Made by a program: the position numbers and the translations under genes. From the NCBI RefSeq assembly GCF_058153355.1, contig NZ_CM177019.1: 64,000 bases of DNA. The stretch is one strand, 5' to 3'. The notes under the pieces were generated by a model. That model made no database searches. It was given only the letters and a program-made list of their open reading frames with translations, and had not been told where the DNA came from. This document shows positions 2,568 through 49,869 of this stretch, one piece after another (the first letter of the stretch is position 1; the number at the start of each line of letters is the position of its first letter).

Positions 2568-2594
2568 TTTCGTAAAGCAAAAAGGAGCAGGATG

Positions 2595-3743: not shown

Positions 3744-3761
3744 ATGCGCTGATGTGATAAT

Positions 3762-3791
3762 GCCGGATACGACGTTTGCGGCGTATCCGGC
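3762..3791. terminator. REP-like hairpin between convergent fucO and xni
   Basis: 10-bp perfect inverted repeat GCCGGATACG / CGTATCCGGC with a 10-nt loop, resembling REP palindromes; sits between two convergent stop codons. Confidence 0.5.
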
Positions 3792-3797
3792 ACGCCG

Positions 3798-4664
<867 letters not shown>

Positions 4665-32640: not shown

Positions 32641-33226
32641 TCTGGCTAAAATCTATTGTTGGGGTTTTACTCACAGCGGCGACATCATCCGGCAAATAAT
32701 TTTTCTTCGGTGTGTAATCCATGACTTTTGCGGTTAACACTGCGGGGAATTTGCGGATAGTGACATTATATTGTTCGATGGCTTTAATATATCTTCCTCG
32801 CGCAACGGCAATTCGATTTTCACTTCCTTCGAGCTGTACCATCAAATTTTGATAGAGTTCCTGGGCCTTTAGCTCAGGGTAACGTTCACTAATTATCGTT
32901 AACTGACCGAGAGTGCGAGACACCTGCGCCTGAGCTTGTTGCCAGGTTTGTAATTTTTGTTCATCTCCCGGAGTTTGCTGAAGAGCACTACTGGCGCGAT
33001 TAGCCTGACTACGTGCCAATGTTACGGCTTCCAGTACCTCTTGTTCATGGCTGGAATAACCTTTAATACTGGCGACAAGATTAGGAATAAGATCGGCGCG
33101 ACGTTGATATTGATTTAATACCTCAGACCAGGAAGCGTTAACCTGCTCATCATAGGTTTGAATATCGTTATATCCACAGCCTGATAAATTGAAAATAAAT
33201 ATAATTACGATGAATATTCTGAGCAT
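32624..33226 (-). CDS. LemA-family lipoprotein
   Basis: 200-aa ORF with lipoprotein signal (lipobox LSGC) and LemA-type sequence (RRADLIPNLVASIKGYSSHEQEVLEAVTLARS...); first gene of the four-gene minus-strand cluster. Confidence 0.85.
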   Translation of the reverse strand: MLRIFIVIIFIFNLSGCGYNDIQTYDEQVNASWSEVLNQYQRRADLIPNLVASIKGYSSHEQEVLEAVTLARSQANRASSALQQTPGDEQKLQTWQQAQAQVSRTLGQLTIISERYPELKAQELYQNLMVQLEGSENRIAVARGRYIKAIEQYNVTIRKFPAVLTAKVMDYTPKKNYLPDDVAAVSKTPTIDFSQNANAH

Positions 33227-33398
33227 GGTTAAATTCCTTTTAATTAATTTCTTAAAACATAATACGCCACTTCATTTTATTCTTTATGATCTAATCCACT
33301 TTTTGCCTTAAACCTGCCTGTAACAGAATGTTAATAAGACATGATTGTTGTGGCAGGATCTGCAATAATTAACAATTATCCACTTCACAGAGAATGCT

Positions 33399-34070
33399 AT
33401 GCAGTACCCGATTAACGAGATGTTCCAGACCCTGCAAGGTGAGGGTTACTTTACCGGCGTCCCCGCCATTTTTATTCGTTTACAGGGATGCCCGGTCGGC
33501 TGTGCCTGGTGCGACACCAAACACACCTGGGAAAAGCTTGAGGATCGGGAAGTCTCCCTTTTCAGCATTCTGGCGAAGACCAAAGAGAGTGATAAGTGGG
33601 GGGCGGCGAGCAGTGAAGATTTGCTGGCTGTCATTGGTCGTCAGGGATACACCGCGCGGCATGTGGTGATTACGGGTGGTGAGCCTTGCATTCATGATTT
33701 GCTGCCACTGACTGACCTGCTCGAAAAGAACGGTTTTAGCTGCCAGATCGAAACCAGCGGTACTCATGAAGTACGCTGCACGCCGAATACCTGGGTTACC
33801 GTATCGCCAAAGCTGAACATGCGCGGCGGCTATGAAGTGTTGTCACAGGCACTGGAGCGAGCCAACGAAATCAAGCATCCAGTGGGACGCGTACGTGATA
33901 TTGAAGCACTGGATGAACTATTGGCGACGCTGACCGATGATAAACCACGAGTCATTGCACTGCAGCCAATTAGCCAAAAGGATGATGCCACACGTTTGTG
34001 CATTGAAACTTGCATTGCGCGTAACTGGCGTTTGTCGATGCAAACACATAAATATTTAAATATTGCCTGA
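33399..34070 (+). CDS. queE: 7-carboxy-7-deazaguanine synthase (radical SAM)
   Basis: 223-aa ORF recognised as QueE/YgcF (CxxxCxxC-type motif GCPVGCAWCDT). Confidence 0.93.
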   Translation: MQYPINEMFQTLQGEGYFTGVPAIFIRLQGCPVGCAWCDTKHTWEKLEDREVSLFSILAKTKESDKWGAASSEDLLAVIGRQGYTARHVVITGGEPCIHDLLPLTDLLEKNGFSCQIETSGTHEVRCTPNTWVTVSPKLNMRGGYEVLSQALERANEIKHPVGRVRDIEALDELLATLTDDKPRVIALQPISQKDDATRLCIETCIARNWRLSMQTHKYLNIA

Positions 34071-34353
34071 CAGGTAATGTGAGTAGAGGTTGTGACGATT
34101 AAGCCTCTACTCTTACATCAATCTGTAAATGCCCCATTTTCTCCTCTCTTTGGTCCGACTCCGCAATTTCGTATATTTTTCAATAGTGTTAATGTTTTGT
34201 CCAAGTAAAAATTACCAGACATTCGGAGGTTTTTAACTAACATTTATAGTGGGTAAATTGGTGGGATACGCTTAACCTTAAAAAATCAATATAAACAATA
34301 GGTTATGATTGGTGTTTGTCTTATCGGATGAACTAATTTAAATGGAGTACTAA

Positions 34354-34617
34354 ATGGCTACTTTAATGGAAAAAGATTCTCTCCTGAATGGCGTAAGTCA
34401 AAATATTGCATTTTTATCAAATGTATCAGAAATGATTTACAAGTCCCAGAATGAAGAATTACAAAAGGAGATATATGAATTGGTGAGTTATAGAGACTAT
34501 TTATATTCAACAGGCCATGAACTCGTTGATTTCAAGGAAGGAGTATTGCGATTTCAGCAAGTTAGAAAAAAATACATGCAGGATCTAAAAGCGCTAGGTT
34601 ATCCCGCAACCAATTGA
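34354..34617 (+). CDS. hypothetical small protein (87 aa) in an AT-rich islet
   Basis: ORF with GGAG Shine-Dalgarno 7 nt upstream; surrounding 34071-34797 is far more AT-rich than the flanks; no family recognised. Confidence 0.45.
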   Translation: MATLMEKDSLLNGVSQNIAFLSNVSEMIYKSQNEELQKEIYELVSYRDYLYSTGHELVDFKEGVLRFQQVRKKYMQDLKALGYPATN

Positions 34618-34797
34618 TAAATATGTCTTTATATTAATTTTAGGATGTGGATAACCTGCTGAAATTTATATTAAAAATGAAATAAAAATATTAAATTCAT
34701 ATCATGCTTGCGTTTTGTTCTCGATAACGCGTAATTTTGTTGAATGCTTTCTCCTGTGAATGCAAAACCAGGCAGTTTCCCGCCCGGCCTTCCTCAC

Positions 34798-36282
34798 TTA
34801 CGCATTCGACCAGCTCTGGATCGAATCTTCATTCCCCAGCTCACCATGCATCACTTCATACGATTTTTTCAGGATCACATCAGTGTGTTTGGTTAGGTCT
34901 TTGAAAATGCCTTTATTCATCGCGTCGTAGCGTTTGGCGTTGCTCTCAACAGGCATAAAGATATCTTTCACGCGAACCATTTTGTCGACAGCCGTTGCGT
35001 AATCCGGGTATAGCCCCAGACCTACCGCCGTATTAATCGCTGCCCCCAGGCTTGCACAACCGTTAATGGCGTTACGTCGTGCCGGAAGGTTGAACACGTC
35101 GGCAAAAATTTGCATAAACAGATCGCTGTTCGAACCGCCGCCAGTAATGATCACATGTTTCGCAAAGTGATTCATTTCATGACACATATTGTCGTAATTG
35201 TTCTTCAGCGTCAGCGTCAGCGCCACGCTTTCCAGTATCGAACGATATATCCATGCGTAATCCATGCTGGAATCAAAGCCGATCATAATCCCGCGTTTGT
35301 ACGGTTCCCACGGATTGGTCAGCCAGTCCAGCACCGTCATCAGACCATTACAGCCAGGCGGCACACAACAAGCTTTTTTGTTGAGCAAATCTTCCGGTGA
35401 AAGATCCTGCGCCCTGGCATCCTGAATTAACGATTCGCCTAGCATGTCGCGCAGCCAACTCACCGTCCACATGCCTTTGCGAATACCGTAACCTTCATAC
35501 AGCAAGGTTTGCGGAATAGAAGACATAATCGGCCAGTACGCTACCGGATCTTTCGGCAGTACTTTGCCGTTCATCATCAACGCGATGTAAGTGCCAAGAG
35601 AAATTACCGCAGTTTCATCATCCAGTAACCCGGCTCCCAGTGCTTCTACCGGTTTATCACTGGTGGTACAAACAACCGGCAGCCCAGCCGGGAAATGTGT
35701 CGCCAGCGCGGCTTGTGGTGTGATATGCCCAAGAACAGTGCCCGGCATTTGCACATCAAAAAGCATCTGTTGGGGAATATTAAACTTCTCCATTACCGCG
35801 GTATCTTCGCTCCATGCCCAGGTCTTATAATCCACCGGCCACTGACCAAAATAGTTGGCGATATTGTCTTTAAACTCGCCGGTTAAACGGTGTGTCAGAT
35901 AACCTGAAAAAGAGGTGACATATGCCACATCAGGATTGGTGTGCTCGTAGGGACGTGTTACGCGTGCATCCTGCCAGCTAATCAACGGCGCAGCTGGCGT
36001 GCCATCGGCTTTCAATAACGCACGGCAGCAACGGATAGATCCCAGACCAATGCCGACAATATCTTCTTTATTCCCGGCAAACTGGCTCATCAAATCGTGA
36101 CCAGCAAAACATAATGATGCCCATAAATCATCGTCAGGATGTTCTGCGGTATCGGCATCTGGAGTGTGCATCGGTTGTAATAAGCCTTTGCCTTCGCAAA
36201 CCACGTTACCTTCCAGATCGTACATCACCACTTTTGTGCTCTGACTTCCGCCATCAATCCCTATGATGTATTTTTTCGACAT
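34798..36282 (-). CDS. ygcE: FGGY-family carbohydrate kinase
   Basis: 494-aa ORF, FGGY kinase N-terminus (IGIDGGSQSTKVVMYD). Confidence 0.88.
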   Translation of the reverse strand: MSKKYIIGIDGGSQSTKVVMYDLEGNVVCEGKGLLQPMHTPDADTAEHPDDDLWASLCFAGHDLMSQFAGNKEDIVGIGLGSIRCCRALLKADGTPAAPLISWQDARVTRPYEHTNPDVAYVTSFSGYLTHRLTGEFKDNIANYFGQWPVDYKTWAWSEDTAVMEKFNIPQQMLFDVQMPGTVLGHITPQAALATHFPAGLPVVCTTSDKPVEALGAGLLDDETAVISLGTYIALMMNGKVLPKDPVAYWPIMSSIPQTLLYEGYGIRKGMWTVSWLRDMLGESLIQDARAQDLSPEDLLNKKACCVPPGCNGLMTVLDWLTNPWEPYKRGIMIGFDSSMDYAWIYRSILESVALTLTLKNNYDNMCHEMNHFAKHVIITGGGSNSDLFMQIFADVFNLPARRNAINGCASLGAAINTAVGLGLYPDYATAVDKMVRVKDIFMPVESNAKRYDAMNKGIFKDLTKHTDVILKKSYEVMHGELGNEDSIQSWSNA

Positions 36283-36308
36283 GATTTTTCTCCTGTAATT
36301 TTCCTGGC

Positions 36309-37586
36309 TTACTTGCTGCTAGCCATTGCGGGGGCGCTATCAGCAGTACGAATTTTTTGGAACAGCAAAAAGGTAAAGACGATCACCATGGCAAGCGCCG
36401 CCATGCCCATCAGCCACATATTGCGGTAGGCTTCTGCCGCGGGCAGGGTGTCTTGCCAGTGGCCGATAATTGGGTAAACGAAGACATCCGGCAGAAATCC
36501 AATCACCGAACAAATACCTACCGTGGTGCCCATAATGTAAGACGGTGTTCTCGCTTCGCCGGGGCAGGCCCAGTACAGCCCGCGGGAGGCGTAGCAGGTG
36601 AATCCCAGTAGTAAAATCAGGCCAATCCCCATCGCGACCGATTGCGGGTTAGAGTTCGTGATGAGCAGGGCAGTTAACGCCAGCAGGCCGAGTACGGAAA
36701 GGATTTGGATCACGCGGGTAGGGGATTTCACTTTGCTGTAGGTGGTGATAATGCCACCAAGTGGGCCGCACAGTGCGCGGAAGATTTTGTTGATCACAAT
36801 CCCCATGTAGCTCGCCGCCACCAGCGACATGCCGTACATTTCGGTCAGATAGTTGGTGGAGTAACTCAGAATGGCGTAGATGGTGAAGACGCCAAAAATC
36901 ACCATGCTGCAGTACCATGTGGTGCTGATACGCAAAACGGCAAGGATGTCGCTAAGCTGGAATGACTGTTTTTCTTCGGTGTTGGTATTGCGCAGGTTGT
37001 TGTTATCGCTAACAAAAAACCAGCACAGAATCCCCAACAAGATGTAAACCACACTATAGATGATAATGACCGTTTTCAGGCTGGCGCTGTCATCCGGTGC
37101 AAAGCGAGAAAAGACCCACATGGTAAACACCGCCAGCGACATTACACCGACGCCGCGCAGCCCTTCCATCCAGCCCATAATTTTCCCCTGCTCGCTATGA
37201 TCGCCAAGCAACGATGCGGCTTTAATCGACACCGACCACAGCATTAAAATCGTCGTTATCGCAAAGGCGACCTGAATACAGAGCATTACCCACAGCGGTG
37301 GATACGTTGCCATTAACAGACCCAGCAATCCGGTAATGATCATCGCGGAAGTAATCATTTTGCGGTGTGAAAATTTATCGGCAATAACGCTGCTGGGGGC
37401 ATAAAGAATAATAGCCGCAATACCAAAGGTACTCATTATTAAACCTATCTCGGTATTGCTGAATCCCATAAATTTCGCCATGGGAATTTGATAAATATAA
37501 CGTAAATAAGCCAGGTCGAAACTAACGCCGCCGCTAAAACTAATTATCGCGAGGGTTATCCAACGGCGATATGAGTTGTGTTGCAT
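36309..37586 (-). CDS. yqcE: MFS transporter
   Basis: 425-aa polytopic ORF upstream of ygcE on the same strand. Confidence 0.88.
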   Translation of the reverse strand: MQHNSYRRWITLAIISFSGGVSFDLAYLRYIYQIPMAKFMGFSNTEIGLIMSTFGIAAIILYAPSSVIADKFSHRKMITSAMIITGLLGLLMATYPPLWVMLCIQVAFAITTILMLWSVSIKAASLLGDHSEQGKIMGWMEGLRGVGVMSLAVFTMWVFSRFAPDDSASLKTVIIIYSVVYILLGILCWFFVSDNNNLRNTNTEEKQSFQLSDILAVLRISTTWYCSMVIFGVFTIYAILSYSTNYLTEMYGMSLVAASYMGIVINKIFRALCGPLGGIITTYSKVKSPTRVIQILSVLGLLALTALLITNSNPQSVAMGIGLILLLGFTCYASRGLYWACPGEARTPSYIMGTTVGICSVIGFLPDVFVYPIIGHWQDTLPAAEAYRNMWLMGMAALAMVIVFTFLLFQKIRTADSAPAMASSK

Positions 37587-37610
37587 ATCGTATTCCCATT
37601 TGTAATAGAC

Positions 37611-37658
37611 AAAAAAAAGAGAAAAGTAAGCCGCCCTTTCAGGTGGATTACTTTTCTC
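37611..37658 (-). terminator. intrinsic-terminator-like hairpin plus U8 in the yqcE 5' leader (candidate attenuator)
   Basis: Minus-sense: GAGAAAAGTAA (18-nt loop) TTACTTTTCTC followed by TTTTTTTT, ending about 25 nt upstream of the yqcE ATG; no upstream same-strand gene for it to terminate. Confidence 0.5.
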
Positions 37659-37764
37659 AGGTCTCTAGTAATTGCAGTAAGAAATAACATGGAAAGCAGT
37701 GGTGTTGTGTGAGAGTAATCACGCTTCTGCTTTTTAAAATTATTTGACAATTCGAATATCACAC

Positions 37765-37780
37765 TGTGATTACGATCACA
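37765..37780. promoter_or_regulatory. CRP-type site TGTGA-N6-TCACA in the yqcE/ygcW divergent promoter region
   Basis: Perfect match to both CRP half-sites with 6-bp spacer (TGTGATTACGATCACA), overlapping a second palindrome ATCACACTGTGAT. Confidence 0.55.
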
Positions 37781-37833
37781 TTAGCGCTTATGCCCTTATG
37801 CTAAAAATTATCTCCAGTTACCAGAGATAATGA

Positions 37834-37880
37834 GAAAGGTAACTTCCCTCTCGCGGGGGAAGTTACCTTTCTTTTTTTTT
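37834..37880 (+). terminator. intrinsic-terminator-like hairpin plus T9 in the ygcW 5' leader (candidate attenuator)
   Basis: 15-bp perfect stem GAAAGGTAACTTCCC / GGGAAGTTACCTTTC with 8-nt loop, followed by TTTTTTTTT, 24 nt upstream of the ygcW ATG. Confidence 0.55.
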
Positions 37881-37904
37881 GCCTTACGGAAATTGGAGCT
37901 AACT

Positions 37905-38690
37905 ATGTCAATCGAATCTCTCAATGCGTTCTCAATGGATTTTTTCTCCCTGAAAGGTAAAACCGCAATTGTTACCGGCGGGAATAGCGGTTTAGGCCAG
38001 GCATTTGCCATGGCACTCGCAAAAGCAGGCGCAAATATCTTTATTCCAAGTTTCGTTAAAGATAATGGCGAAACAAAGGAAATGATTGAAAAACAGGGTG
38101 TTGAGGTGGACTTCATGCAGGTGGATATCACCGCAGAAGGCGCGCCGCAGAAGATAATTACCGCCTGTTGTGAACGTTTCGGCACCGTCGATATTCTGGT
38201 TAACAATGCCGGTATATGTAAGCTGAATAAGGTGCTGGATTTCGGTCGTGCCGACTGGGACCCGATGATTGACGTGAACCTGACCGCCGCATTCGAGTTA
38301 AGCTATGAAGCGGCAAAAATTATGATCCCGCAGAAAAGCGGTAAAATCATTAATATCTGTTCATTATTCTCTTACTTAGGTGGACAATGGTCACCTGCAT
38401 ATTCTGCCACTAAACATGCTCTTGCCGGATTCACCAAAGCTTATTGTGATGAACTAGGTCAATATAATATTCAGGTAAATGGTATTGCCCCTGGCTATTA
38501 TGCAACAGATATCACCCTGGCGACACGCAGTAATCCAGAAACCAATCAGCGCGTTCTTGATCATATTCCGGCAAACCGTTGGGGCGATACTCAGGATTTA
38601 ATGGGCGCAGCCGTATTCCTCGCAAGTCCGGCTTCAAATTATGTTAACGGGCATTTATTAGTGGTCGATGGCGGTTATTTAGTGCGCTAA
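37905..38690 (+). CDS. ygcW: short-chain dehydrogenase/reductase (KduD-like)
   Basis: ORF 37830-38690 trimmed to MSIESLNAF...; SDR motifs TGGNSGLG and YSATK; the track N-terminal extension would run through the leader hairpin. Confidence 0.88.
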   Translation: MSIESLNAFSMDFFSLKGKTAIVTGGNSGLGQAFAMALAKAGANIFIPSFVKDNGETKEMIEKQGVEVDFMQVDITAEGAPQKIITACCERFGTVDILVNNAGICKLNKVLDFGRADWDPMIDVNLTAAFELSYEAAKIMIPQKSGKIINICSLFSYLGGQWSPAYSATKHALAGFTKAYCDELGQYNIQVNGIAPGYYATDITLATRSNPETNQRVLDHIPANRWGDTQDLMGAAVFLASPASNYVNGHLLVVDGGYLVR

Positions 38691-38759
38691 TCCATAACGG
38701 TGGTTTCTGATTTCTTTTATTAATGACTATTCCATTTTTATTATCAGGAAGGAATTACT

Positions 38760-40214
38760 ATGTCTTTATCTCGCGCAGCGATTGTCGACCAGCTAAAGGA
38801 AATTGTTGGTGCAGATCGCGTAATTACCGATGAAACGGTATTGAAGAAAAACAGTATTGATCGTTTTCGTAAATTTCCGGATATTCATGGTATTTATACT
38901 TTGCCTATTCCGGCAGCGGTCGTAAAACTCGGTTCCACAGAGCAAGTGTCCCGTGTGCTGAATTTTATGAATGCACACAAAATTAACGGCGTACCACGTA
39001 CCGGTGCTTCCGCTACCGAAGGCGGGCTGGAAACTGTTGTGGAAAACTCGGTGGTGCTCGATGGCTCTGCAATGAATCAAATCATTAATATTGATATAGA
39101 GAATATGCAGGCCACGGCGCAATGTGGCGTTCCGTTGGAAGTGCTGGAAAACGCGTTGCGTGAAAAAGGCTATACCACGGGGCATTCTCCGCAGTCAAAA
39201 CCGTTGGCGCAGATGGGTGGGTTGGTAGCTACCCGCAGCATCGGGCAGTTCTCCACACTCTACGGCGCAATCGAGGATATGGTCGTTGGCCTGGAAGCAG
39301 TACTGGTTGATGGCACCGTGACACGCATTAAAAACGTGCCACGACGCGCGGCGGGCCCGGACATTCGTCACATCATCATCGGCAACGAAGGTGCATTGTG
39401 CTATATCACTGAAATAACAGTGAAAATATTTAAATTCACTCCCGAAAACAACCTCTTTTATGGCTATATCCTGGAAGACATGAAGACCGGCTTCAACATC
39501 CTGCGTGAAATCATGGTGGAAGGATATCGTCCGTCGATCGCTCGTTTGTATGACGCTGAAGATGGCACCCAACACTTCACCCATTTTGCCGACGGAAAAT
39601 GCGTGCTGATCTTTATGGCTGAAGGTAACCCTCGCATTGCGAAGGCGACGGGCGAAGGGATTGCAGAAATCGTGGCACGTTACCCGCAATGCCAGCGCGT
39701 GGACAGTAAGCTGATCGAAACCTGGTTTAACAACCTGAACTGGGGACCGGATAAAGTGGCTGCCGAACGTGTGCAGATCCTCAAAACCGGCAACATGGGC
39801 TTTACCACCGAAGTGTCCGGCTGCTGGAGTTGCATACACGAAATCTACGAAAGCGTTATTAACCGTATTCGTACCGAGTTCGCGCACGCCGACGACATCA
39901 CCATGCTGGGCGGTCACTCCTCTCATAGCTATCAGAACGGCACCAACATGTACTTCGTCTACGACTACAACGTTGTTGACTGTAAGCCGGAAGAGGAAAT
40001 CGACAAATACCACAATCCGCTCAACAAAATCATCTGCGAAGAAACCATTCGCCTCGGCGGTTCGATGGTACACCATCACGGTATCGGTAAACATCGTGTT
40101 CACTGGAGCAAACTGGAACACGGCAGCGCGTGGACATTGCTGGAAGGGCTGAAAAAACAGTTCGATCCTAACGGTATTATGAATACGGGTACTATCTATC
40201 CGATTGAAAAATAA
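38760..40214 (+). CDS. ygcU: FAD-linked oxidase (GlcD / alkyl-DHAP-synthase-like)
   Basis: 484-aa ORF with FAD-binding PCMH-type N-domain. Confidence 0.85.
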   Translation: MSLSRAAIVDQLKEIVGADRVITDETVLKKNSIDRFRKFPDIHGIYTLPIPAAVVKLGSTEQVSRVLNFMNAHKINGVPRTGASATEGGLETVVENSVVLDGSAMNQIINIDIENMQATAQCGVPLEVLENALREKGYTTGHSPQSKPLAQMGGLVATRSIGQFSTLYGAIEDMVVGLEAVLVDGTVTRIKNVPRRAAGPDIRHIIIGNEGALCYITEITVKIFKFTPENNLFYGYILEDMKTGFNILREIMVEGYRPSIARLYDAEDGTQHFTHFADGKCVLIFMAEGNPRIAKATGEGIAEIVARYPQCQRVDSKLIETWFNNLNWGPDKVAAERVQILKTGNMGFTTEVSGCWSCIHEIYESVINRIRTEFAHADDITMLGGHSSHSYQNGTNMYFVYDYNVVDCKPEEEIDKYHNPLNKIICEETIRLGGSMVHHHGIGKHRVHWSKLEHGSAWTLLEGLKKQFDPNGIMNTGTIYPIEK

Positions 40215-40307
40215 TGTGTCAGGCAGCGTTTCGCGATGACGGGGCGTTGTCTTTTCGGCTTCTCAACCGGGAAGCCGTTCTTATTACCGGACAATGAAGG
40301 GGTAAAG

Positions 40308-41645
40308 ATGAACACTTCACCGGTGCGAATGGATGATTTACCGCTTAACCGTTTTCACTGTCGAATTGCTGCGCTGACTTTCGGCGCACACCTGACCGAC
40401 GGTTATGTTCTCGGCGTCATTGGTTACGCCATAATTCAGCTTACTCCAGCCATGCAACTGACGCCGTTTATGGCGGGAATGATTGGTGGCTCGGCGCTAC
40501 TTGGCCTGTTTATCGGCAGCCTGGTTTTGGGGTGGATCTCCGACCATATCGGGCGGCAAAAAATCTTCACCTTCAGCTTTATGCTGATTACGCTCGCCTC
40601 GTTCCTGCAATTTTTTGCCACCACGCCAGAGCATCTTATTGGACTACGCATTTTGATCGGCATTGGTCTGGGAGGCGACTATTCAGTAGGTCACACCTTG
40701 CTGGCTGAATTTTCCCCGCGCCGCCATCGCGGTATTTTGCTAGGCGCTTTCAGCGTGGTGTGGACCGTAGGCTATGTGTTGGCAAGTCTTGCCGGACATC
40801 ACTTTATTAGCGAAAGCCCCGAAGCCTGGCGATGGTTACTTGCATCGGCGGCATTTCCTGCCCTGTTGATTACGTTGTTACGTTGGGGAACGCCAGAATC
40901 GCCACGCTGGCTACTGCGCCAGGGGCGTTTTGCAGAAGCTCACGCTATCGTGCATCGCTATTTTGGTCCCCATGTTTTACTGGGCGATGAAGTGGCAACG
41001 GCGACCCATAAACACATCAAAACCTTGTTCTCTTCGCGCTACTGGCGGCGCACGGCGTTTAACAGCGTCTTCTTTGTCTGCCTCGTAATCCCATGGTTTG
41101 TGATTTATACCTGGCTGCCAACTATCGCCCAGACTATTGGACTGGAAGATGCGCTGACTGCCAGCCTGATGCTTAATGCGTTGTTAATTGTGGGCGCGCT
41201 GCTGGGATTATTTCTGACGCACCTGCTGGCACATCGCAAATTTTTACTTGGCAGTTTTTTGTTGCTGGCGGCAACGCTGGTAGTGATGGCCTGTTTGCCT
41301 TCTGCCTGTTCATTAACGCTGCTGCTTTTTGTTCTCTTCAGTACCACCATTTCGGCAGTCAGTAATCTGGTGGGCATTTTGCCTGCGGAAAGTTTTCCTA
41401 CTGACATTCGCTCGCTGGGTGTCGGTTTTGCCACTGCCATGAGTCGGTTGGGGGCGGCGGTAAGTACTGGCCTGCTGCCGTGGGTGCTGGCGCAGTGGGG
41501 AATGCAAGTCACCTTATTGCTCCTGGCGGCAGTGTTGTTGGTTGGTTTTGTTGTGACCTGGCTATGGGCGCCAGAAACCAAAGCACTCCCGCTGGTGGCG
41601 GCGGGAAATGTAGGAGGTACTAATGAACATTCTGTTAGCATTTAA
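40308..41645 (+). CDS. ygcS: MFS sugar-type transporter
   Basis: ORF 40236-41645 trimmed to MNTSPVRMDD... with GAAGGGG Shine-Dalgarno; polytopic MFS. Confidence 0.85.
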   Translation: MNTSPVRMDDLPLNRFHCRIAALTFGAHLTDGYVLGVIGYAIIQLTPAMQLTPFMAGMIGGSALLGLFIGSLVLGWISDHIGRQKIFTFSFMLITLASFLQFFATTPEHLIGLRILIGIGLGGDYSVGHTLLAEFSPRRHRGILLGAFSVVWTVGYVLASLAGHHFISESPEAWRWLLASAAFPALLITLLRWGTPESPRWLLRQGRFAEAHAIVHRYFGPHVLLGDEVATATHKHIKTLFSSRYWRRTAFNSVFFVCLVIPWFVIYTWLPTIAQTIGLEDALTASLMLNALLIVGALLGLFLTHLLAHRKFLLGSFLLLAATLVVMACLPSACSLTLLLFVLFSTTISAVSNLVGILPAESFPTDIRSLGVGFATAMSRLGAAVSTGLLPWVLAQWGMQVTLLLLAAVLLVGFVVTWLWAPETKALPLVAAGNVGGTNEHSVSI

Positions 41646-42402
41646 AGCCGAACCAGATGCCGGAATGCTGGCAGAAAAAGAGTGGCAGGTGGCGGCTCAG
41701 GGTAATCGCGGACCGGATGTTTCGCTGCTGCGAAGTTTACTCGGTGCTGATGAACAGGCCGCTGCCGCGCTTCTGTTAGCGCAGAGAAAAAACGGTACGC
41801 CGATGTCTTTAACCGCGTTGAGCATGGGGGATGAACGGGCGTTGCACTGGCTGCGCTATCTTATGGCGTTGGGGTTTGAGAAGGCAGTATTGCTGGAGAC
41901 GGCGGCAGATCTGCGCTTTGCACCGGAATTTGTCGCCCGGCATATTGCCGAATGGCAGTGCCAGAATCCGCTGGATCTGATAATTACCGGCTGCCAGAGC
42001 AGCGAAGGGCAGAACGGGCAAACGCCATTTTTGCTGGCGGAAATGCTGACCTGGCCCTGTTTTACCCAGGTGGAGCGTTTTACTCTCGACGCACCGTTTA
42101 TCTCGCTCGAACAGCGTACTGAACATGGATTACGCTGTTGTCGGGTTCGCTTGCCTGCGGTGATTGCCGTGCGCCAGTGTGGCGAGGTGGCCTTGCCAGT
42201 ACCGGGAATGCGCCAGCGAATGGCTGCGGGGAAAGCTGAAATTATCCGCAAAACTGTTACTGCTGAATCGTCTGCGATGCAGTGCCGGCAACTGGAAAGG
42301 CCAGAGCAACGACGCGGTGCAACGCTTCTTGATGGACAAACGGTAGCAGAAAAAGCGCAAAAGCTATGGCAGGACTATTTACGCCAAAGGATGCAGCCAT
42401 GA
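41623..42402 (+). CDS. ygcR: electron-transfer flavoprotein beta-subunit-like (FixA-like)
   Basis: 259-aa ORF; ETF-beta-like; translationally coupled (ATGA overlap) with ygcQ. Confidence 0.85.
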   Translation: MNILLAFKAEPDAGMLAEKEWQVAAQGNRGPDVSLLRSLLGADEQAAAALLLAQRKNGTPMSLTALSMGDERALHWLRYLMALGFEKAVLLETAADLRFAPEFVARHIAEWQCQNPLDLIITGCQSSEGQNGQTPFLLAEMLTWPCFTQVERFTLDAPFISLEQRTEHGLRCCRVRLPAVIAVRQCGEVALPVPGMRQRMAAGKAEIIRKTVTAESSAMQCRQLERPEQRRGATLLDGQTVAEKAQKLWQDYLRQRMQP

Positions 42403-43259
42403 ATATCGCCATTGTGACAATAAATCAGGAACATGCCGCAATAGCGGGCTGGCTGGCGGAGCAGGATTTCAGCGGCAGCACATTAACGCACTGGCAAATC
42501 GAGCCGCAGCCGATGGTCGCGGAACAGGTGCTGGATGCGCTGGTAGAACAGTGGCAGCGAACGCCTGCGGACGTTGTTCTCTTTCCGCCGGGAACGTTTG
42601 GCGATGAACTGGCTACCCGCCTGTCCTGGCGTTTACATGGTGCCAGTATATGCCAGGTGACTTCATTAAATATTCCAACCGGAAGCGTACGCAAATCCCA
42701 CTGGGGAAATGCGCTAACGGCGACGCTGCAAACAGAAAAACGCCCGCTATGCTTCTCCCTGGCGCGTCAGGCGGGAGCAGATAAAAACGCCTCGTTGCCC
42801 CCGGGTATGCAGCAACTGAACATTGTCCCAGGTGCGCTTCCCGGCTGGCTGGTTAGCATAGTGAACCTGAAAAATGTTACCCGTGACCCATTAGCTGAGG
42901 CCAGACGGGTGCTGGTGGTGGGGCAGGGCGGAGAGGCAGATAACCAGGAAATCGCTATGCTGGCAGAAAAGCTGGGAGCCGAAGTGGGCTACAGTCGGGC
43001 GCGAGTAATGAACGGTGGCGTTGATGCCGAAAAAGTGATTGGTATTTCCGGACATCTGCTGGCACCTGAGGTGTGTATTGTTGTTGGCGCTTCCGGCGCA
43101 GCAGCGTTAATGGCGGGCGTCCGCAATAGCAAGTTTGTGGTGGCGATTAATCATGACGCCAGCGCGGCGGTATTTTCACAGGCAGATGTTGGCGTGGTTG
43201 ATGACTGGAAAGCGGTGCTGGAGGCACTGGTGACAACCATTCACGCAGATTGCCAATAA
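42399..43259 (+). CDS. ygcQ: electron-transfer flavoprotein alpha-subunit-like (FixB-like)
   Basis: ORF 42366-43259 trimmed to MNIAIVTINQ...; ETF-alpha-like. Confidence 0.85.
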   Translation: MNIAIVTINQEHAAIAGWLAEQDFSGSTLTHWQIEPQPMVAEQVLDALVEQWQRTPADVVLFPPGTFGDELATRLSWRLHGASICQVTSLNIPTGSVRKSHWGNALTATLQTEKRPLCFSLARQAGADKNASLPPGMQQLNIVPGALPGWLVSIVNLKNVTRDPLAEARRVLVVGQGGEADNQEIAMLAEKLGAEVGYSRARVMNGGVDAEKVIGISGHLLAPEVCIVVGASGAAALMAGVRNSKFVVAINHDASAAVFSQADVGVVDDWKAVLEALVTTIHADCQ

Positions 43260-43307
43260 CGTGCTGCCGGATGATCCTGCCTACGGTTCTGGGCTGGGGA
43301 CTTGTAA

Positions 43308-43342
43308 GCCTGATAAGACGCGTCAAGCGTCGTATCAGGCGC
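43308..43342. repeat. REP palindrome between convergent ygcQ and ygcP
   Basis: GCCTGATAAGACGCGTCAAGCGTCGTATCAGGCGC, typical enterobacterial REP sequence. Confidence 0.75.
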
Positions 43343-43405
43343 TGAATGTCGGATGTGGCGTGCAGCCTACAAATCACACAAATTCAATTCGTTACGATTA
43401 TCTCG

Positions 43406-43981
43406 TCAAAGCAATTTTTTCGCTAACGTCCAGACCCCGGTATTCGTGGTAGAAAGCGCCACTACACCGGCGTTAATCGCATTACGCGCATCTTCTTCAT
43501 CGCACACCAGCCCGCCAGCAATCAGCGGCTGGTGGATTTTCTCCGTTACCCAGCCCAGTACTTTAGGCATACAGCCTGGCAGAATTTCAATACAATCCGG
43601 GTTCGATTGCGCAACCTGTTTATCAATGTTGTGAAATGAAATCGAATCAACAATAAACAAGCGATGAATACAGAAAAAGCCTTCCGCTCTCGCCGCTTTT
43701 AGCATTGACGCTTTGGTACTGATAATGCCGTCCGCCTCGGTCACCAGTTTCAGAAACTGAATTACTACTTCTTTATTTGACGCGCCTTCCAGCAAATCGA
43801 CATGAATAAAAGCATATTTTCCGGCGTTCTTAATCTTTTTGACGATATGACTGATGGTGCAAATATTGCCGTATAACACGGAAATAAACTGGCATTCAGA
43901 ATCGATTGCCAACTGCAGGCTGGCATTATCTTTAACGGCAGCAATCACCGGATTCTGGCGGAGCAGGTGTAAGAGGGGCAT
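43406..43981 (-). CDS. ygcP: GlpP-like putative transcription antiterminator
   Basis: 191-aa ORF recognised as YgcP (glycerol-3-phosphate-responsive antiterminator family). Confidence 0.85.
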   Translation of the reverse strand: MPLLHLLRQNPVIAAVKDNASLQLAIDSECQFISVLYGNICTISHIVKKIKNAGKYAFIHVDLLEGASNKEVVIQFLKLVTEADGIISTKASMLKAARAEGFFCIHRLFIVDSISFHNIDKQVAQSNPDCIEILPGCMPKVLGWVTEKIHQPLIAGGLVCDEEDARNAINAGVVALSTTNTGVWTLAKKLL

Positions 43982-43997
43982 AAATTATCCTTATTAT

Positions 43998-44258
43998 TTA
44001 TCCAAAGCGGTAGGTGATGCCGAATCCGGAAGGCGGATAGCGCCACTGTTGTAGCGTTTTTTCATCGCACAGCAAACGGCAGGTGCCGCACTCCAGACAA
44101 TTACGATAATCAACGTGCAAATCACCTTCCGGTGTGAGCGAAAAAAGACCAGCCGGACAAGCGTTAATCAACCGTTCTGCCGTCTGGCGCTCAACGGAGT
44201 CAGCCGGAACAATATGTGGCGCATCAGCAGCGCGCCAGAGATTACGGGCTACAGACAT
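43998..44258 (-). CDS. ygcO: ferredoxin-like protein (FixX-like)
   Basis: ORF 43998-44294; Cys-rich (CLECGTCRLLC); start uncertain, placed at MSVARNLW. Confidence 0.75.
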   Translation of the reverse strand: MSVARNLWRAADAPHIVPADSVERQTAERLINACPAGLFSLTPEGDLHVDYRNCLECGTCRLLCDEKTLQQWRYPPSGFGITYRFG

Positions 44259-45520
44259 CGAATACTCCTGACAACATCGCCCGCCAGATGCCACAGGCCA
44301 TGACGACGTAAATGACGCCAGAGCAACTGGCGCAGCGGCGGAACAGGTTTATCACCTTGATCCCATAAATCACGGGAAATATCCTGCATTAACACAGGCC
44401 ACTTACGGTACCAGCCCGGGCGTTGCAAAAGCGCCGGAACATGCTGATAGCGCTGTAGAACATCCCACAGCAGGCTGCGCTCTACGTTGTAATGATAAAG
44501 CGGAAACAGATTTTGCGGCTCGCGGTGCTGGCAGGCGCTTATCAGCGTTTGTGCCGCCGCCTGCGCGCCAGTTAGCGCCATATCCATGCCGCGCACGGAA
44601 ATTCCGGTATTGACGCAACTGCGCAACGTATCGCCCACCAGCAGCCAGCCGTTACCGGCGTATTGCACCGGCATACTGTGCAGGCCACCTTCCGGCACCA
44701 GATGCGCGCCATACTCCAGCGATTCCGCGCTTTTGATAAGCTGGCGCACTGCCGGATGCGTTTTAAAGCGGGCCAGCAGCTCGCTTGCCGGAACACGACT
44801 TTGCGTAAGTGAAGAGAGCGGGCAAACAATCCCTAACGAGAGCGTTTGTTGATTAGTATAAAGAAATGCGCCGCCGGGTAAGTCATCACAGATTCCGCCG
44901 CTGAACAGCAACGCTGCGCCTTCGTTATTCTCCAGATGAAAACGTTCTTCAATAGCGGATGTTTCCAGTGAAAGAACTTCTTTGATCCCCAACGCCATCG
45001 CTTCGCCAGCAGGACGAGTCACTAACCCGTGACGCTCAGCCAGGACGCTGTTGGCACCTTCTGCCAGCACCACATAACGGGCGCGGAGAATATCGTCACC
45101 ACAAATAACGCCGCAAACTCTGCCGTTTTCTTCATACAGCGCATCTACCGTCGCACCAGGGATGCATTCGACACCTTCTTTTTCGGCTTCGGCAACCAGC
45201 CACGGATCGAACCGTGCACGTAATACGCTCCAGGATTCACCGCCGGGCTGTAAGCTGGAAAACGTCGTTGCGCCATCCGGCGTTAGCAGAGAAAGACTTT
45301 CGTGAGTGATGCGTCGTTCAAGAGGCGCGGTCAGGTGAAACTGAGGGAGGAGTTCCGCGAGCGCATGGGTGTATAAACGCCCGCCGGAAAGGTTTTTACT
45401 GCCGGGAATTTCAGCGCGTTCCAGTAACAGAACGGATAAACCTGCCCGCGCGCAGCGTAAAGCACAAGCGGTGCCTGCTATACCCGCACCAATAATAATA
45501 ATGTCGCAGTCGTCTTCCAT
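44249..45520 (-). CDS. ygcN: ETF-quinone oxidoreductase-like flavoprotein (FixC-like)
   Basis: ORF 44249-45550 trimmed to MEDDCDIIIIGAGIAG... (FAD dinucleotide-binding motif). Confidence 0.85.
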   Translation of the reverse strand: MEDDCDIIIIGAGIAGTACALRCARAGLSVLLLERAEIPGSKNLSGGRLYTHALAELLPQFHLTAPLERRITHESLSLLTPDGATTFSSLQPGGESWSVLRARFDPWLVAEAEKEGVECIPGATVDALYEENGRVCGVICGDDILRARYVVLAEGANSVLAERHGLVTRPAGEAMALGIKEVLSLETSAIEERFHLENNEGAALLFSGGICDDLPGGAFLYTNQQTLSLGIVCPLSSLTQSRVPASELLARFKTHPAVRQLIKSAESLEYGAHLVPEGGLHSMPVQYAGNGWLLVGDTLRSCVNTGISVRGMDMALTGAQAAAQTLISACQHREPQNLFPLYHYNVERSLLWDVLQRYQHVPALLQRPGWYRKWPVLMQDISRDLWDQGDKPVPPLRQLLWRHLRRHGLWHLAGDVVRSIRCL

Positions 45521-45597
45521 GTCATGCCCCAGATATCCAGAGCGCAACACCCTAACATAGCGTTACTTAAGGGAAATTGACCGCCGACACACTCTTA

Positions 45598-45963
45598 TCA
45601 TTCGCCGCGATAGATGCAACCTGCGGTGCAGGTTTCTTTCACCATAACCGCACTTAACAGCGGAACAACCGGTTTAACCTGATCCCAAATCCATTTTGCT
45701 AAAACCTCGCTGGTCGGGTTTTCCAGGCCAGGAATATCATTGAGATAATAGTGATCGAGGCGATCATAGGTTGGTTTAAATGCCGCTTTCAGTTCAGCGA
45801 AATCGATAATCCAGCCCGTATGCGGATCGACTTCCCCGGTAATTTCCAGTCGCACCATAAAGGAATGCCCATGCAGGCGACCACATTTATGTCCTTCCGG
45901 GACGTGTGGTAAGCGGTGAGCGGCTTCGAAGGTGAAATCTTTAAATAACGTGGTGGACATCAT
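45598..45963 (-). CDS. queD: 6-carboxy-5,6,7,8-tetrahydropterin synthase
   Basis: ORF 45598-46047 trimmed to [10 protein letters not shown]... (121 aa); PTPS-family motif [24 protein letters not shown]. Confidence 0.9.
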
Positions 45964-46278
45964 AATTTCTCTACATGACGATAAAACCGCCGTAGAGTAC
46001 CGGAAAGGCTGTTTTTTCGCATTATCTAAAACGACTTTGTTGCGCAAAATCGCTGATTTATCTTAATGATTGGCTAAATTCATTTGTTTTTCATTGGGTT
46101 GGTTAATCTGTTTTGTTGTTAAAGACTATTGCTAAAACAGGTTAGTCGATTTGGTTATTAGTTATCGCTATCCCGTCTTTAATCCACACCGTTCACCCCG
46201 TTAACCTTACCTTCTCTTCTGTTTTATGGGCGCTGACAGGGCGCAGAAACAGCTTTGCTTACTGGAACATAACGACGC

Positions 46279-48084
46279 ATGACGACACAGGTCCCACCTT
46301 CCGCGTTGCTTCCGTTGAACCCGGAGCAACTGGCACGCCTTCAGGCGGCCACGACCGATTTAACTCCCACCCAGCTTGCCTGGGTTTCTGGCTATTTCTG
46401 GGGCGTGCTCAACCAACAGCCTGCTGCGCTTACAGCGACGCCAGCGCCCGCCCCCGCCGCAGAAATGCCGGGTATAACTATTATCTCCGCTTCGCAAACC
46501 GGCAATGCGCGCCGGGTTGCTGAAACATTACGCGATGATTTATTAGCGGCAAAACTGAACGTTAAGCTGGTGAACGCGGGCGACTATAAATTCAAACAAA
46601 TCGCCAGCGAAAAACTGCTCATCGTGGTGACGTCAACGCAAGGTGAAGGGGAACCGCCGGAGGAGGCCGTCGCGCTGCATAAGTTCCTGTTCTCCAAAAA
46701 AGCGCCGAAGCTGGAAAACACCGCGTTTGCCGTGTTTAGTCTCGGCGATAGCTCTTATGAATTTTTCTGCCAGTCCGGGAAAGATTTCGATAGCAAGCTG
46801 GCGGAACTGGGCGGTGAACGCCTGCTCGACCGTGTCGATGCCGACGTTGAATACCAGGCCGCTGCCAGCGAGTGGCGCGCCCGCGTAGTAGATGCTCTTA
46901 AATCGCGTTCGCCTGTCGCGGCACCTTCGCAATCCGTCGCTACTGGCGCGGTAAATGAAATCCACACCAGCCCGTACAGCAAAGACGCGCCGCTGGTGGC
47001 GAGCCTCTCTGTTAACCAGAAAATTACTGGGCGTAACTCTGAAAAAGACGTTCGCCATATCGAAATTGACCTGGGCGACTCTGGCCTGCGTTACCAGCCT
47101 GGCGATGCGCTGTGCGTCTGGTATCAGAACGATCCGGCGCTGGTGAAAGAACTTGTCGAATTGCTGTGGCTGAAAGGCGATGAACCTGTCACCGTCGAGG
47201 GCAAAACGTTGCCTCTGAACGAGGCCCTACAGTGGCACTTCGAACTGACCGTCAACACCTCCAACATCGTTGAGAACTACGCCACGCTAACCCGCAGTGA
47301 AACGCTGCTGCCGCTGGTGGGCGATAAATCGAAGTTACAGCATTACGCCGCGACGACGCCGATTGTCGATATGGTGCGTTTCTCTCCGGCACAGCTTGAC
47401 GCTGAAGCCCTGATTAACTTGCTGCGCCCGCTGACGCCGCGCCTGTATTCCATCGCCTCCTCGCAGGCGGAAGTCGAGAACGAAGTACACGTCACCGTTG
47501 GTGTCGTTCGTTATGACATTGAAGGCCGCGCCCGTGCCGGTGGTGCCTCCAGCTTCCTCGCGGACCGTGTGGAAGAAGAGGGCGAAGTCCGCGTATTTAT
47601 CGAACATAACGACAACTTCCGCCTGCCCGCTAACCCGGAAACGCCGGTGATTATGATTGGCCCAGGCACCGGCATCGCGCCTTTCCGCGCCTTTATGCAG
47701 CAACGCGCCGCTGACGAAGCGCCGGGCAAAAACTGGCTGTTCTTCGGCAACCCACACTTTACCGAAGATTTCCTCTACCAGGTGGAGTGGCAGCGCTATG
47801 TCAAAGAGGGCGTGCTGACACGTATCGATCTTGCCTGGTCGCGCGATCAAAAAGAAAAAATTTACGTACAAGACAAACTGCGCGAACAGGGCGCAGAGCT
47901 GTGGCGCTGGATCAATGACGGTGCCCACATTTATGTCTGCGGCGACGCTAATCGCATGGCGAAAGACGTTGAACAGGCACTTCTGGAAGTGATTGCCGAA
48001 TTTGGTGGCATGGACACCGAAGCGGCGGATGAATTTTTAAGTGAGCTGCGCGTAGAGCGCCGTTATCAGCGAGATGTCTACTAA
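46279..48084 (+). CDS. cysJ: sulfite reductase (NADPH) flavoprotein alpha subunit
   Basis: 601-aa ORF recognised as CysJ (flavodoxin plus FAD/NADPH domains). Confidence 0.96.
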
Positions 48085-49796: not shown

Positions 49797-49816
49797 CCAT
49801 CAGTCCAGTCTTGTAG

Positions 49817-49848
49817 GCCTGATAAGACGCGTAAGCGTCGCATCAGGC
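49817..49848. repeat. REP palindrome between cysI and cysH
   Basis: GCCTGATAAGACGCGTAAGCGTCGCATCAGGC. Confidence 0.75.
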
Positions 49849-49869
49849 AAGGCAAACAGTGAGGAATCT

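Follow-up and report, generated by a model that had tools for sequence, protein, structure and literature searches.

The ygc cluster of Escherichia coli: a putative CRP- and YgcP-controlled regulon built around a kinase, a dehydrogenase and an alkyl-DHAP-synthase-like flavoenzyme

Gene content of the ygc cluster

The DNA analysed here, referred to as the window, is a stretch of 64,000 nucleotides from contig NZ_CM177019.1 (NCBI RefSeq assembly GCF_058153355.1). It includes the ygc cluster, ten genes located at 34798-45520 and flanked by queE on one side and by queD-cysJ on the other. The cluster itself is already known and annotated. A preliminary description of this DNA had listed ten contiguous genes and named their families, including a GlpP-like protein for YgcP. 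Its account of the gene content is accurate: all ten open reading frames (ORFs) are present and intact in the ORF listing of the window, and the family names are borne out by NCBIfam and by a match of YgcP to PDB 3kts. The closest complete E. coli genome is annotated in RefSeq with the same ten genes under the same family-level names. Of the 5426 complete E. coli genomes, 5057 (about 93%) contain 80% or more of the ygc region.

Two genes on the minus strand form the yqcE-ygcE operon. yqcE (36309-37586) encodes a major facilitator superfamily (MFS) transporter of the anion:cation symporter type, and ygcE (34798-36282), the second gene, encodes an FGGY-family kinase. Five genes lie on the plus strand. 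ygcW (37905-38690) encodes a KduD/IdnO-like short-chain dehydrogenase/reductase (SDR). ygcU (38760-40214) encodes an FAD enzyme whose active site is, by sequence, of the alkyl-dihydroxyacetonephosphate synthase (ADPS) type. ygcS encodes a second MFS transporter and extends from 40236 (long form) or 40308 (K-12-type form) to 41645. ygcR (41623-42402) and ygcQ (42399-43259) encode divergent beta and alpha subunits of an electron-transfer flavoprotein (ETF). The last three genes are again on the minus strand: ygcP (43406-43981) encodes a GlpP-family antiterminator, the proposed regulator acting on both leader RNAs described below; ygcO (43998-44258), a FixX-like ferredoxin-like protein; and ygcN (44249-45520), an FAD protein resembling FixC and ETF-quinone oxidoreductase. 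ygcE, ygcW and ygcU belong to a conserved core; ygcR, ygcQ, ygcO and ygcN form an accessory module.

The family assignments (FGGY, two MFS, SDR, GlcD-like FAD, ETF beta and alpha, FixC-like, FixX-like) are backed by NCBIfam. No curated equivalog cut-off is attained by any of the ten proteins. YgcW comes closest: it scores 350.3 bits with the KduD model (cut-off 369), which leaves it outside KduD; it appears to be a close KduD paralogue, consistent with diol/ketol chemistry. All NCBIfam matches of YgcE are below cut-off, the best being xylulokinase, LsrK and GlpK; its nearest solved structures are LsrK and glycerol kinases. YgcS matches aromatic-acid, sugar-porter and organic-cation (TIGR00898) families, also below cut-off. 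Residues 11-184 of YgcP match the GlpP fold of PDB 3kts (E 9e-29), and PF04309 (GlpP) is also found on YgcP orthologues of other loci. All ten genes are under purifying selection (dN/dS 0.01-0.29).

No biochemical assignment of the ygc genes was found in the literature searched, whose coverage excluded most subscription journals; only CRP and promoter surveys, CRISPR typing and omics lists mention them. In the RefSeq annotation of K-12, all ten products are named 'putative'. A PNAS paper of March 2026 refers to YgcU merely as 'an additional FAD-binding oxidoreductase' (PMC13012123). The earlier statement that substrate and pathway lack an assignment in E. coli agrees with these sources.

YgcE of the window carries a Thr-Leu insertion of two residues relative to K-12 (ALTLTLK instead of ALTLK; codons 355-356, 35209-35214) that resembles a 6-nt tandem duplication. 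A terminator-like hairpin (40256-40277; 9 bp, six of them GC) lies downstream of the ygcU stop codon and ahead of the K-12-type ygcS start (40308), within the long ygcS frame that starts at 40236.

A conserved core of three enzymes and a regulator

Orthologous neighbourhoods were collected by exact-protein look-up and by one scan of a genome collection (67 loci), giving more than 70 loci in total, and the ten window proteins were mapped onto all of them. Loci are designated by L followed by a number. The set covers Enterobacterales, Vibrionaceae, Bacillales, Clostridia/Negativicutes, Desulfobacterota and Spirochaeta.

The SDR (YgcW), YgcU and the FGGY kinase (YgcE) occur together in every locus long enough to be judged; the one exception is Enterococcus canis, which has a GldA-type glycerol dehydrogenase (444 bits; cut-off 336) in place of the SDR. 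A GlpP-like gene (YgcP) joins this trio in most loci; in Bacillales, a regulator of the RpiR/SIS type is often found in its place. E. coli YgcU is 70-73% identical to its orthologues from Sporomusa, Alkalihalobacillus, Desulfobacula and Photobacterium, and YgcW is 76-80% identical to its orthologues in other phyla. The dN/dS values are 0.01-0.03 for ygcW and ygcU, 0.01-0.05 for ygcP and 0.03-0.06 for ygcE, yqcE and ygcS (0.11 for ygcS in one comparison).

Variants of the arrangement were also found. The Photobacterium locus L004 carries a yqcE-FGGY pair as well, preceded by the leader motif. One anaerobe locus, L006, harbours a second copy of the module (349-5317), oriented divergently from the main cluster and comprising a YgcU paralogue, an FGGY kinase and a GlpD-like dehydrogenase; this paralogue is 28% identical to YgcU and keeps its HHH loop. 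L010 (1-11450), labelled as a metagenome-assembled genome of Planctomycetota, carries a ygcU 99% identical to the Escherichia gene, and L033 (1-14499), labelled Chryseobacterium sp., has a full cluster of the Enterobacteriaceae type, queD-cysJ included, at 83-93% protein identity. Contamination or mislabelling of the public assemblies is the probable cause in both cases.

Leader RNAs and CRP sites

Each of the two divergent operons is preceded by a leader RNA. The ygcW leader (37813-37880, plus strand) comprises a GTTACC box, an AGAGA-N4-GAGAAA purine tract and an intrinsic terminator of 17-19 bp followed by U9; it ends 25 nt before the ygcW start codon. Its hairpin (37832-37873, 19 bp then U9), located between the CRP site and this start codon, was the top-ranked terminator in the scan. 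The yqcE leader (37612-37676, minus strand) comprises an ATTACT box, an AGAGA-N3-GAGAAA purine tract and the intrinsic terminator GAGAAAAGUAAUCCACC...GGCGGCUUACUUUUCUC followed by U8. Read on the opposite strand, the yqcE-side hairpin and U8 come with the same 5' sequence as the ygcW leader. The common layout is (R)UUAC(Y) - AGAGA - N3-4 - GAGAAA(R)GUAA(Y) ... terminator 3' arm - U-run. Conservation of both leaders extends throughout Enterobacterales, and a pattern search also found the element in Photobacterium and in one Syntrophomonadaceae genome.

An alignment of 47 non-redundant copies was used to build a covariance model, with which the ygcW and yqcE leaders score 79.8 and 71.7 bits. In this alignment, the terminator helix is 90% paired and eight of its pairs are changed on both sides. 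An alternative antiterminator helix of 6 bp joins the RUUACY box to the RGUAAY sequence in the middle of the 5' arm of the terminator. It is 91% paired, versus 15-55% in slid registers. The pairs at its two ends covary: 8-38 (GC in 33 sequences, AU in 12) and 13-33 (UA in 33, CG in 7). Column 38, which pairs with the box, is mostly unpaired inside the terminator.

The covariance model retrieved 12 further copies outside the training set. Each lies in the 5' leader of a cluster gene or of an associated transporter gene, and each locus concerned has a GlpP gene. All searched loci with a GlpP gene contain the element, and the 12 searched loci that lack one gave no leader match at E<0.01; the only mismatch between leader and regulator is L039, considered below. 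In Sporomusa L002 and in L079, the motif precedes the SDR gene and a gene for a betaine/choline/carnitine transporter (BCCT); in L073, ygcU and a BCCT gene; in Enterococcus L074, a GldA-like gene and the FGGY kinase gene; in L067 and L075, an operon encoding an Opu-type ABC transporter. In L077 and L078, it precedes a single array encoding the Opu ABC transporter, the SDR, the FGGY kinase, YgcU, EtfBA and a second oxidase.

A scan of 33000-47000 with Rfam 15 at E<=1 gave two sub-threshold chance matches, none of them at the leaders. The gap between the convergent ygcQ and ygcP genes (43260-43405) contains palindromes similar to repetitive extragenic palindromes and bacterial interspersed mosaic elements (REP/BIME), with a sub-threshold Rfam match to naRNA4 (28 bits; gathering score 59.5). 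A third leader copy was sought upstream of ygcN and was not found. The ygcN start lies 77 nt downstream of the queD stop on the same strand, and this gap (45521-45597) has no terminator and no leader motif; ygcN-O-P may therefore be partly co-transcribed with the queuosine gene queD.

Two CRP sites accompany the leaders. The high-affinity site TGTGAttacgaTCACA (37765-37780) lies about 42 nt upstream of the ygcW leader. It is identical in K-12, where it is bound in vitro with a Kd of about 1.7 nM, among the tightest in the genome (PMC12871828), and it had been predicted in 2007 by PhyloScan (PMC1794230). A putative second site, TGTGAgagtaaTCACG (37708-37723), read from the sequence, lies about 40 nt upstream of the yqcE leader and is conserved in the Enterobacteriaceae alignment. 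The yqcE-ygcE operon is listed as Crp-activated (PMC8085971). In Bacillus subtilis, GlpP targets likewise have a promoter, a GlpP site and a terminator in the 5' untranslated region (UTR) (PMC9604022).

CRP activation combined with YgcP-dependent antitermination is well supported as a prediction and is the best-supported part of the model presented here. The cluster is classified as a GlpP-style antitermination regulon over an uncharacterised pathway. The preliminary description had treated the genes as a co-regulated functional unit; the catabolic unit that they form is indeed conserved and co-regulated.

The active site of YgcU

Among solved structures, the best relative of YgcU by sequence is ADPS (E 9e-40); glycolate oxidase (3e-25), LctD and D-lactate dehydrogenases come behind. 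R262, Y398 and H438-H440 of YgcU align with Arg419, Tyr578 and the His615-617 loop of ADPS. The catalytic positions of ADPS are marked by the mutant PDB entries 4bc7 (R419H) and 4bca (Y578F); the catalytic Tyr is Y578 in the guinea pig enzyme and Y508 in the Dictyostelium enzyme, Y398 being its counterpart in YgcU. These residues (R262, Y398, HHH) are invariant in 27 YgcU orthologues and are also kept in the 28%-identical paralogue mentioned above.

The C-terminal motif of YgcU is VHHHGIG and not the xEHGxG of 2-hydroxyacid dehydrogenases (GlcD, LctD, D-lactate dehydrogenase), which sets its sequence apart from that group; with the GlcD model it scores 144 bits (cut-off 568). An ordinary xEHGxG motif is present in the second GlcD-like oxidase, whose gene adjoins those for the ETF subunits in anaerobes and Photobacterium. 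YgcU orthologues carry an FAD domain of the vanillyl-alcohol oxidase (VAO) type and a cap domain (PF01565 and PF02913). For the AlphaFold model of YgcU (pLDDT 84), Foldseek ranks 1-30 are all ADPS, with a TMq of 0.84 to 4bby. The fold search is supportive and not discriminating; it is the motif evidence that carries the ADPS argument. As judged from its sequence, YgcU keeps the alkyl-DHAP synthase catalytic signature, not an ordinary 2-hydroxyacid dehydrogenase motif.

In ADPS, oxidised FAD acts as an electrophile that traps the C1 carbanion of acyl-dihydroxyacetone phosphate (acyl-DHAP); the acyl group is expelled and an alcohol is added, with no net redox change (PMC3509576).

The partners of ADPS in the eukaryotic pathway are an alkyl-DHAP reductase of the SDR family and an alkylglycerol kinase. 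The bacterial trio would supply the same three activities.

Clues to the substrate

The cluster points to a glycerol derivative as the substrate class, rather than to a sugar acid or a generic polyol. A glycerol-like moiety is suggested by four features: YgcP is homologous to a sensor of glycerol 3-phosphate (G3P); the FGGY kinase is related to GlpK and LsrK; the dehydrogenase step can be filled either by a KduD/IdnO-like SDR or by a GldA-type glycerol dehydrogenase; and the catalytic residues of YgcU are those of an enzyme acting on DHAP derivatives. The polyol or sugar acid proposed earlier is thus disfavoured by the GlpP-like regulator, the GldA replacement and the ADPS residues. No aldolase or isomerase is encoded in the cluster; a pathway that yields a triose phosphate directly would need neither.

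Outside Enterobacterales, 14 of 23 loci have genes for transport or demethylation of the quaternary-amine type within 10 kb: BCCT transporters in L002, L003, L004, L007, L073 and L079; Opu-type ABC transporters in L060, L067, L075, L077 and L078; MttB-family methyltransferases in L005, L006, L008 and L060. L008 also encodes a corrinoid protein and a pterin methyltransferase. The closest solved relative of its MttB is the glycine betaine methyltransferase MtgB, which indicates a quaternary-amine context and not the identity of the substrate. The leader motif lies directly ahead of seven of these transporter genes or operons (L002, L067, L073, L075, L077, L078 and L079), so that the BCCT and Opu transporters appear to belong to the same regulon. 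Given these transporters and methyltransferases, the substrate outside Enterobacterales is probably a glycerol derivative with a trimethylammonium-type group.

The head group of a betaine lipid, glyceryl-trimethylhomoserine derived from diacylglyceryl-trimethylhomoserine (DGTS), is a speculative candidate. The idea predicts an aspartase-like lyase, and the Lyase_1 neighbour of the Alkalihalobacillus cluster is aspartase-like (466 bits; subfamily cut-off 510); it is accompanied by a betaine-aldehyde-dehydrogenase-like enzyme and a class III alcohol dehydrogenase. As read from their sequences, these three enzymes could convert homoserine betaine to fumarate and trimethylamine. In its widest form, the proposal is that YgcW-YgcE-YgcU represent a widespread bacterial reversal of ether-lipid chemistry that degrades small polar glyceryl ethers to DHAP and an alcohol, that glyceryl-N,N,N-trimethylhomoserine (deacylated DGTS) is the substrate in marine, saline and anaerobic settings, and that E. 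coli has retained a version of it. It fits the BCCT and Opu genes under the same leader, the adjoining MttB genes and the Alkalihalobacillus neighbours, and is nevertheless regarded as rather unlikely. Nothing relevant was found in the literature searched on the combination of ADPS, FGGY, BCCT and MttB proteins or on bacterial catabolism of the DGTS head group or of homoserine betaine, and no bacterial breakdown route for marine osmolytes or betaine lipids was found there.

Other candidates were rejected. Plain glycerol would not need BCCT, Opu or MttB proteins. Carnitine and choline have no vicinal diol or ketol for an FGGY kinase. 2,3-Dihydroxypropane-1-sulfonate (DHPS) was rejected on the grounds of its excretion by E. 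coli, which releases it during growth on sulfoquinovose.

A homologue of the formaldehyde-activating enzyme Fae (TIGR03126, 168 bits), an aldo-keto reductase and an aldehyde dehydrogenase recur beside the transporter gene of the cluster in L040 (1-4260), L054 (1-4246) and L007 (5033-7390), that is, in Erwinia, in Serratia and in one unrelated genome. The aldo-keto reductase resembles L-glyceraldehyde-3-phosphate/methylglyoxal reductase. To our knowledge, enterobacteria do not have tetrahydromethanopterin, and the Fae homologue is unexplained there.

Proposed mechanism

From the observed gene content, conservation, active-site residues, leader structure and co-occurrence with GlpP, and from the published CRP binding, we infer the chemical steps, their order and the YgcP ligand in the following scheme. 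The ygc cluster would be a CRP-activated, YgcP-antiterminated catabolic regulon for a 'glyceryl-X', i.e. a 3-substituted propane-1,2-diol. This reading is given a probability of roughly 45%.

CRP-cAMP would activate the two divergent promoters, each transcript opening with the same terminator-forming leader. By analogy with GlpP, YgcP loaded with a phosphorylated pathway intermediate would stabilise the short alternative helix (RUUACY-RGUAAY), and read-through into yqcE-ygcE and ygcW-U-S-R-Q would follow. Glyceryl-X would be imported by YqcE and/or YgcS. YgcE would phosphorylate its free primary hydroxyl, and YgcW would oxidise the C2 hydroxyl to give a 1-substituted dihydroxyacetone phosphate. 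YgcU, acting as a trimmed ADPS with its flavin as the electrophile, would then either remove the C1 substituent or exchange it, and the resulting DHAP-type product would pass into glycolysis. YgcR/Q and YgcN/O would provide an accessory link between the pathway flavin and the quinone pool.

Several points weigh against this scheme. The D-lactate dehydrogenases come next in the fold search of YgcU with a TMq of 0.79-0.80, a small margin, and given these near-equal scores of a predicted model an ordinary dehydrogenase role for YgcU is still conceivable. YgcU has 484 residues versus 658 in ADPS; the alignment begins at about ADPS residue 193, the N-terminal part (about 190 residues) being missing. 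A redox-neutral YgcU would leave the adjoining ETF genes of E. coli, L060 and several anaerobes without an obvious partner. The order of the kinase and dehydrogenase steps is a guess. As to regulation, the antiterminator helix has just 6 bp, its covariation represents few independent events because the sequences are related, and L039 (Serratia microhaemolytica) has both leaders and no ygcP detected in its 21-kb locus.

The electron-transfer module and alternative readings

The domain families of all four components of the electron-transfer chain (EtfB, EtfA, FixC-like FAD protein and FixX-like ferredoxin) are found in the cluster. YgcR has only weak ETF-beta matches (40 bits). YgcN scores 376 and 358 bits (cut-offs 466 and 610) and YgcO scores 78 bits (cut-off 166); since all four proteins are below the Fix equivalog cut-offs (610 for YgcN, 166 for YgcO), they are regarded as paralogues and not as Fix proteins. 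The nearest solved relatives of YgcR and YgcQ are human and Paracoccus non-bifurcating ETFs, with weak matches (E 1e-10 to 2e-21).

The preliminary description had put this chain at the centre, with an FAD oxidase that feeds a dedicated ETF chain and quinones. Spelled out, this alternative holds that YgcE phosphorylates a polyol-like compound and that YgcU is an FAD dehydrogenase delivering electrons to YgcR/Q, then to YgcN/O and the quinone, with YgcW catalysing a second redox step, as modelled on GlpK/GlpD or on Brucella EryA/EryB. YgcU does belong to the GlcD/VAO superfamily, some members of which use an ETF; LctD-EtfAB (PDB 7qh2) is among the YgcU matches. The ETF genes follow ygcU-ygcS in E. 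coli and lie directly after ygcU in eight loci (L002, L004, L005, L006, L060 and L077-L079), and the ETF/Fix genes are under purifying selection. However, the clusters orthologous to ygc in Erwinia typographi, Pantoea, Izhakiella, Ewingella, Serratia quinivorans, Serratia proteamaculans and all Bacillales lack the ETF and FixCX genes, despite YgcU proteins 76-84% identical to that of E. coli. In anaerobes, the ETF genes adjoin a second, generic GlcD-type dehydrogenase gene that E. coli lacks, and it is this oxidase that has the xEHGxG motif, whereas YgcU has the HHH loop, Tyr and Arg of ADPS and falls far below the GlcD cut-off. The dedicated oxidase-ETF pairing is therefore not retained, and the dehydrogenase alternative is considered possible, with a probability clearly lower than that of the glyceryl-X scheme.

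The evolutionary rates also separate the two parts of the cluster. Between E. coli and Citrobacter or Klebsiella, YgcW, YgcU and YgcP are 93-97% identical, versus about 72% for YgcR and about 60% for YgcQ. The dN/dS values are 0.10-0.19 for ygcR and 0.13-0.29 for ygcQ; for ygcR, ygcQ, ygcO and ygcN together they range from 0.06 to 0.29, i.e. 5-10 times those of the core genes. Since the chain is absent from many orthologous clusters and has dN/dS values above those of the core, it appears from these comparisons to be functional but accessory, and not the organising principle of the cluster.

A second alternative reverses the direction of electron flow: YgcU would receive electrons from YgcN/O/R/Q and use them to eliminate, by reduction, the substituent adjacent to the keto group. 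The source of these electrons in anaerobes would be a 2-hydroxyacid, oxidised by the second oxidase acting with a LarA-like racemase. The anaerobe gene order YgcU-EtfB-EtfA-second oxidase fits this proposal, as do the LarA-family racemase genes found near the cluster in L078 and L079 and the relationship of YgcN and YgcO to FixC and FixX. FixABCX has been proposed to work reductively with carnitine metabolism in E. coli, and the association of caiT, encoding a BCCT transporter, with fixABCX offers a parallel. Against it, the proposal is purely inferential and has no precedent among ADPS-type enzymes; the ETF-less clusters would need another reductant, and E. coli lacks the second oxidase. It is judged improbable.

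That the cluster is a cryptic remnant in E. coli, with no present-day substrate and a decaying ETF part, is very improbable: no report of a phenotype or an inducer was found in the literature searched, the ETF/Fix genes are fast-evolving and E. coli has two divergent classes of alleles, but the ten ORFs are intact and under purifying selection, the cluster is held by 93% of complete genomes, and leaders and CRP sites are conserved across Enterobacterales.

Relationships with known systems

Several known systems resemble the ygc cluster in part. The glp regulon of B. subtilis, in which GlpP acts on the glpD, glpFK and glpTQ leaders, is controlled by a regulator of the same family as YgcP. In both systems, several operons carry a conserved leader element and a 5'-UTR terminator behind a promoter; both are additionally subject to catabolite control (by CRP in ygc, by CcpA in B. 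subtilis); and in both an FGGY kinase makes the likely phosphorylated inducer. They differ in that the ygc host is a Gram-negative enterobacterium, the ygc targets are not glp genes and the ygc leader is not in Rfam. The ligand is G3P in B. subtilis and probably a substituted glycerol phosphate in ygc.

With the eukaryotic ether-lipid enzymes (AGPS/ADPS, SDR alkyl-DHAP reductase and alkylglycerol kinase), YgcU shares the ADPS fold, Arg, Tyr and HHH, and the SDR and the glycerol-kinase-like enzyme correspond to the activities needed to run the pathway backwards. Unlike ADPS, YgcU lacks the N-terminal part of about 190 residues; the ygc context is catabolic, and ETF genes are attached in some lineages. 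Since entry is through MFS, BCCT or Opu transporters, the ygc substrates must be small and polar, unlike those of the ether-lipid pathway.

In E. coli, the cai-fix system (the BCCT transporter CaiT with FixABCX) and the ydiQRST paralogues are comparable to the accessory module, which consists of the FixC paralogue YgcN, the FixX paralogue YgcO and the two ETF subunits YgcR and YgcQ. Like the cai genes, the ygc-type core of other taxa is accompanied by BCCT transporter genes. By contrast, ygc has no acyl-CoA dehydrogenase or CoA-transferase, all four proteins are below the Fix equivalog cut-offs, and the ETF subunits are weakly closest to non-bifurcating ETFs.

GlpK/GlpD and the Brucella erythritol pathway (EryA/EryB) resemble ygc in having a kinase followed by a flavoenzyme that acts on a small polyol phosphate. 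GlpD and EryB are members of the D-amino-acid oxidase (DAO) family and are unrelated to YgcU, which has ADPS residues; furthermore, ygc lacks downstream isomerases. The second oxidase and EtfBA of the anaerobe and Photobacterium clusters resemble LctD-LctBC of Acetobacterium woodii LctBCD, and the Photobacterium EtfA also has a ferredoxin domain. E. coli differs from this system by the lack of the second oxidase and of an LctD-type motif in YgcU.

Sequence divergence around the cluster

The stretch from queE to cysI (33192-50000) is about 95% identical to K-12, whereas the window ends reach 99% identity with E. coli genomes. Its dS relative to other E. coli, E. albertii and E. whittamii is 0.3-0.5. 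For the ygc region, 2130 E. coli genomes fall in the 95-99% identity class and 3295 in the 90-95% class. This pattern points either to alleles that diverged long ago or to the import of a segment adjoining the cas/CRISPR region.

The queE-ygcE spacer (34071-34797) is AT-rich (GC 0.37-0.41) and contains an 87-aa ORF at 34354-34617. Its length of 727 bp compares with 1126 bp for the closest E. coli genome and 1372 bp for K-12. Typing papers on E. coli place CRISPR2.2-3 in this spacer and use ygcE as a landmark; when 34071-34797 was checked for a CRISPR remnant, no CRISPR-like repeats were found.

Implications

Three features described here are not in Rfam or in the literature searched: the architecture of a trio plus antiterminator, which separates the core from the accessory ETF module; the ADPS-type active site of YgcU; and a cross-phylum leader RNA tied to GlpP-like regulators and to quaternary-amine transporters. 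This leader motif, found in both Proteobacteria and Firmicutes, could be developed into a portable antitermination switch. If YgcU is indeed an ADPS-like enzyme whose substrates are small, ADPS flavin chemistry would for the first time be seen in a bacterial, catabolic role. Through its quaternary-amine transporters and methyltransferases outside enterobacteria, the cluster may connect to the turnover of abundant marine osmolytes or betaine lipids. Ten contiguous genes without a function, present in about 93% of E. coli genomes, are a gap in the knowledge of the best-studied bacterium. The question is now open to experiment: the two leader RNAs are defined and their proposed regulator is named, the order in which the three core enzymes act is predicted, and the catalytic residues are specified.

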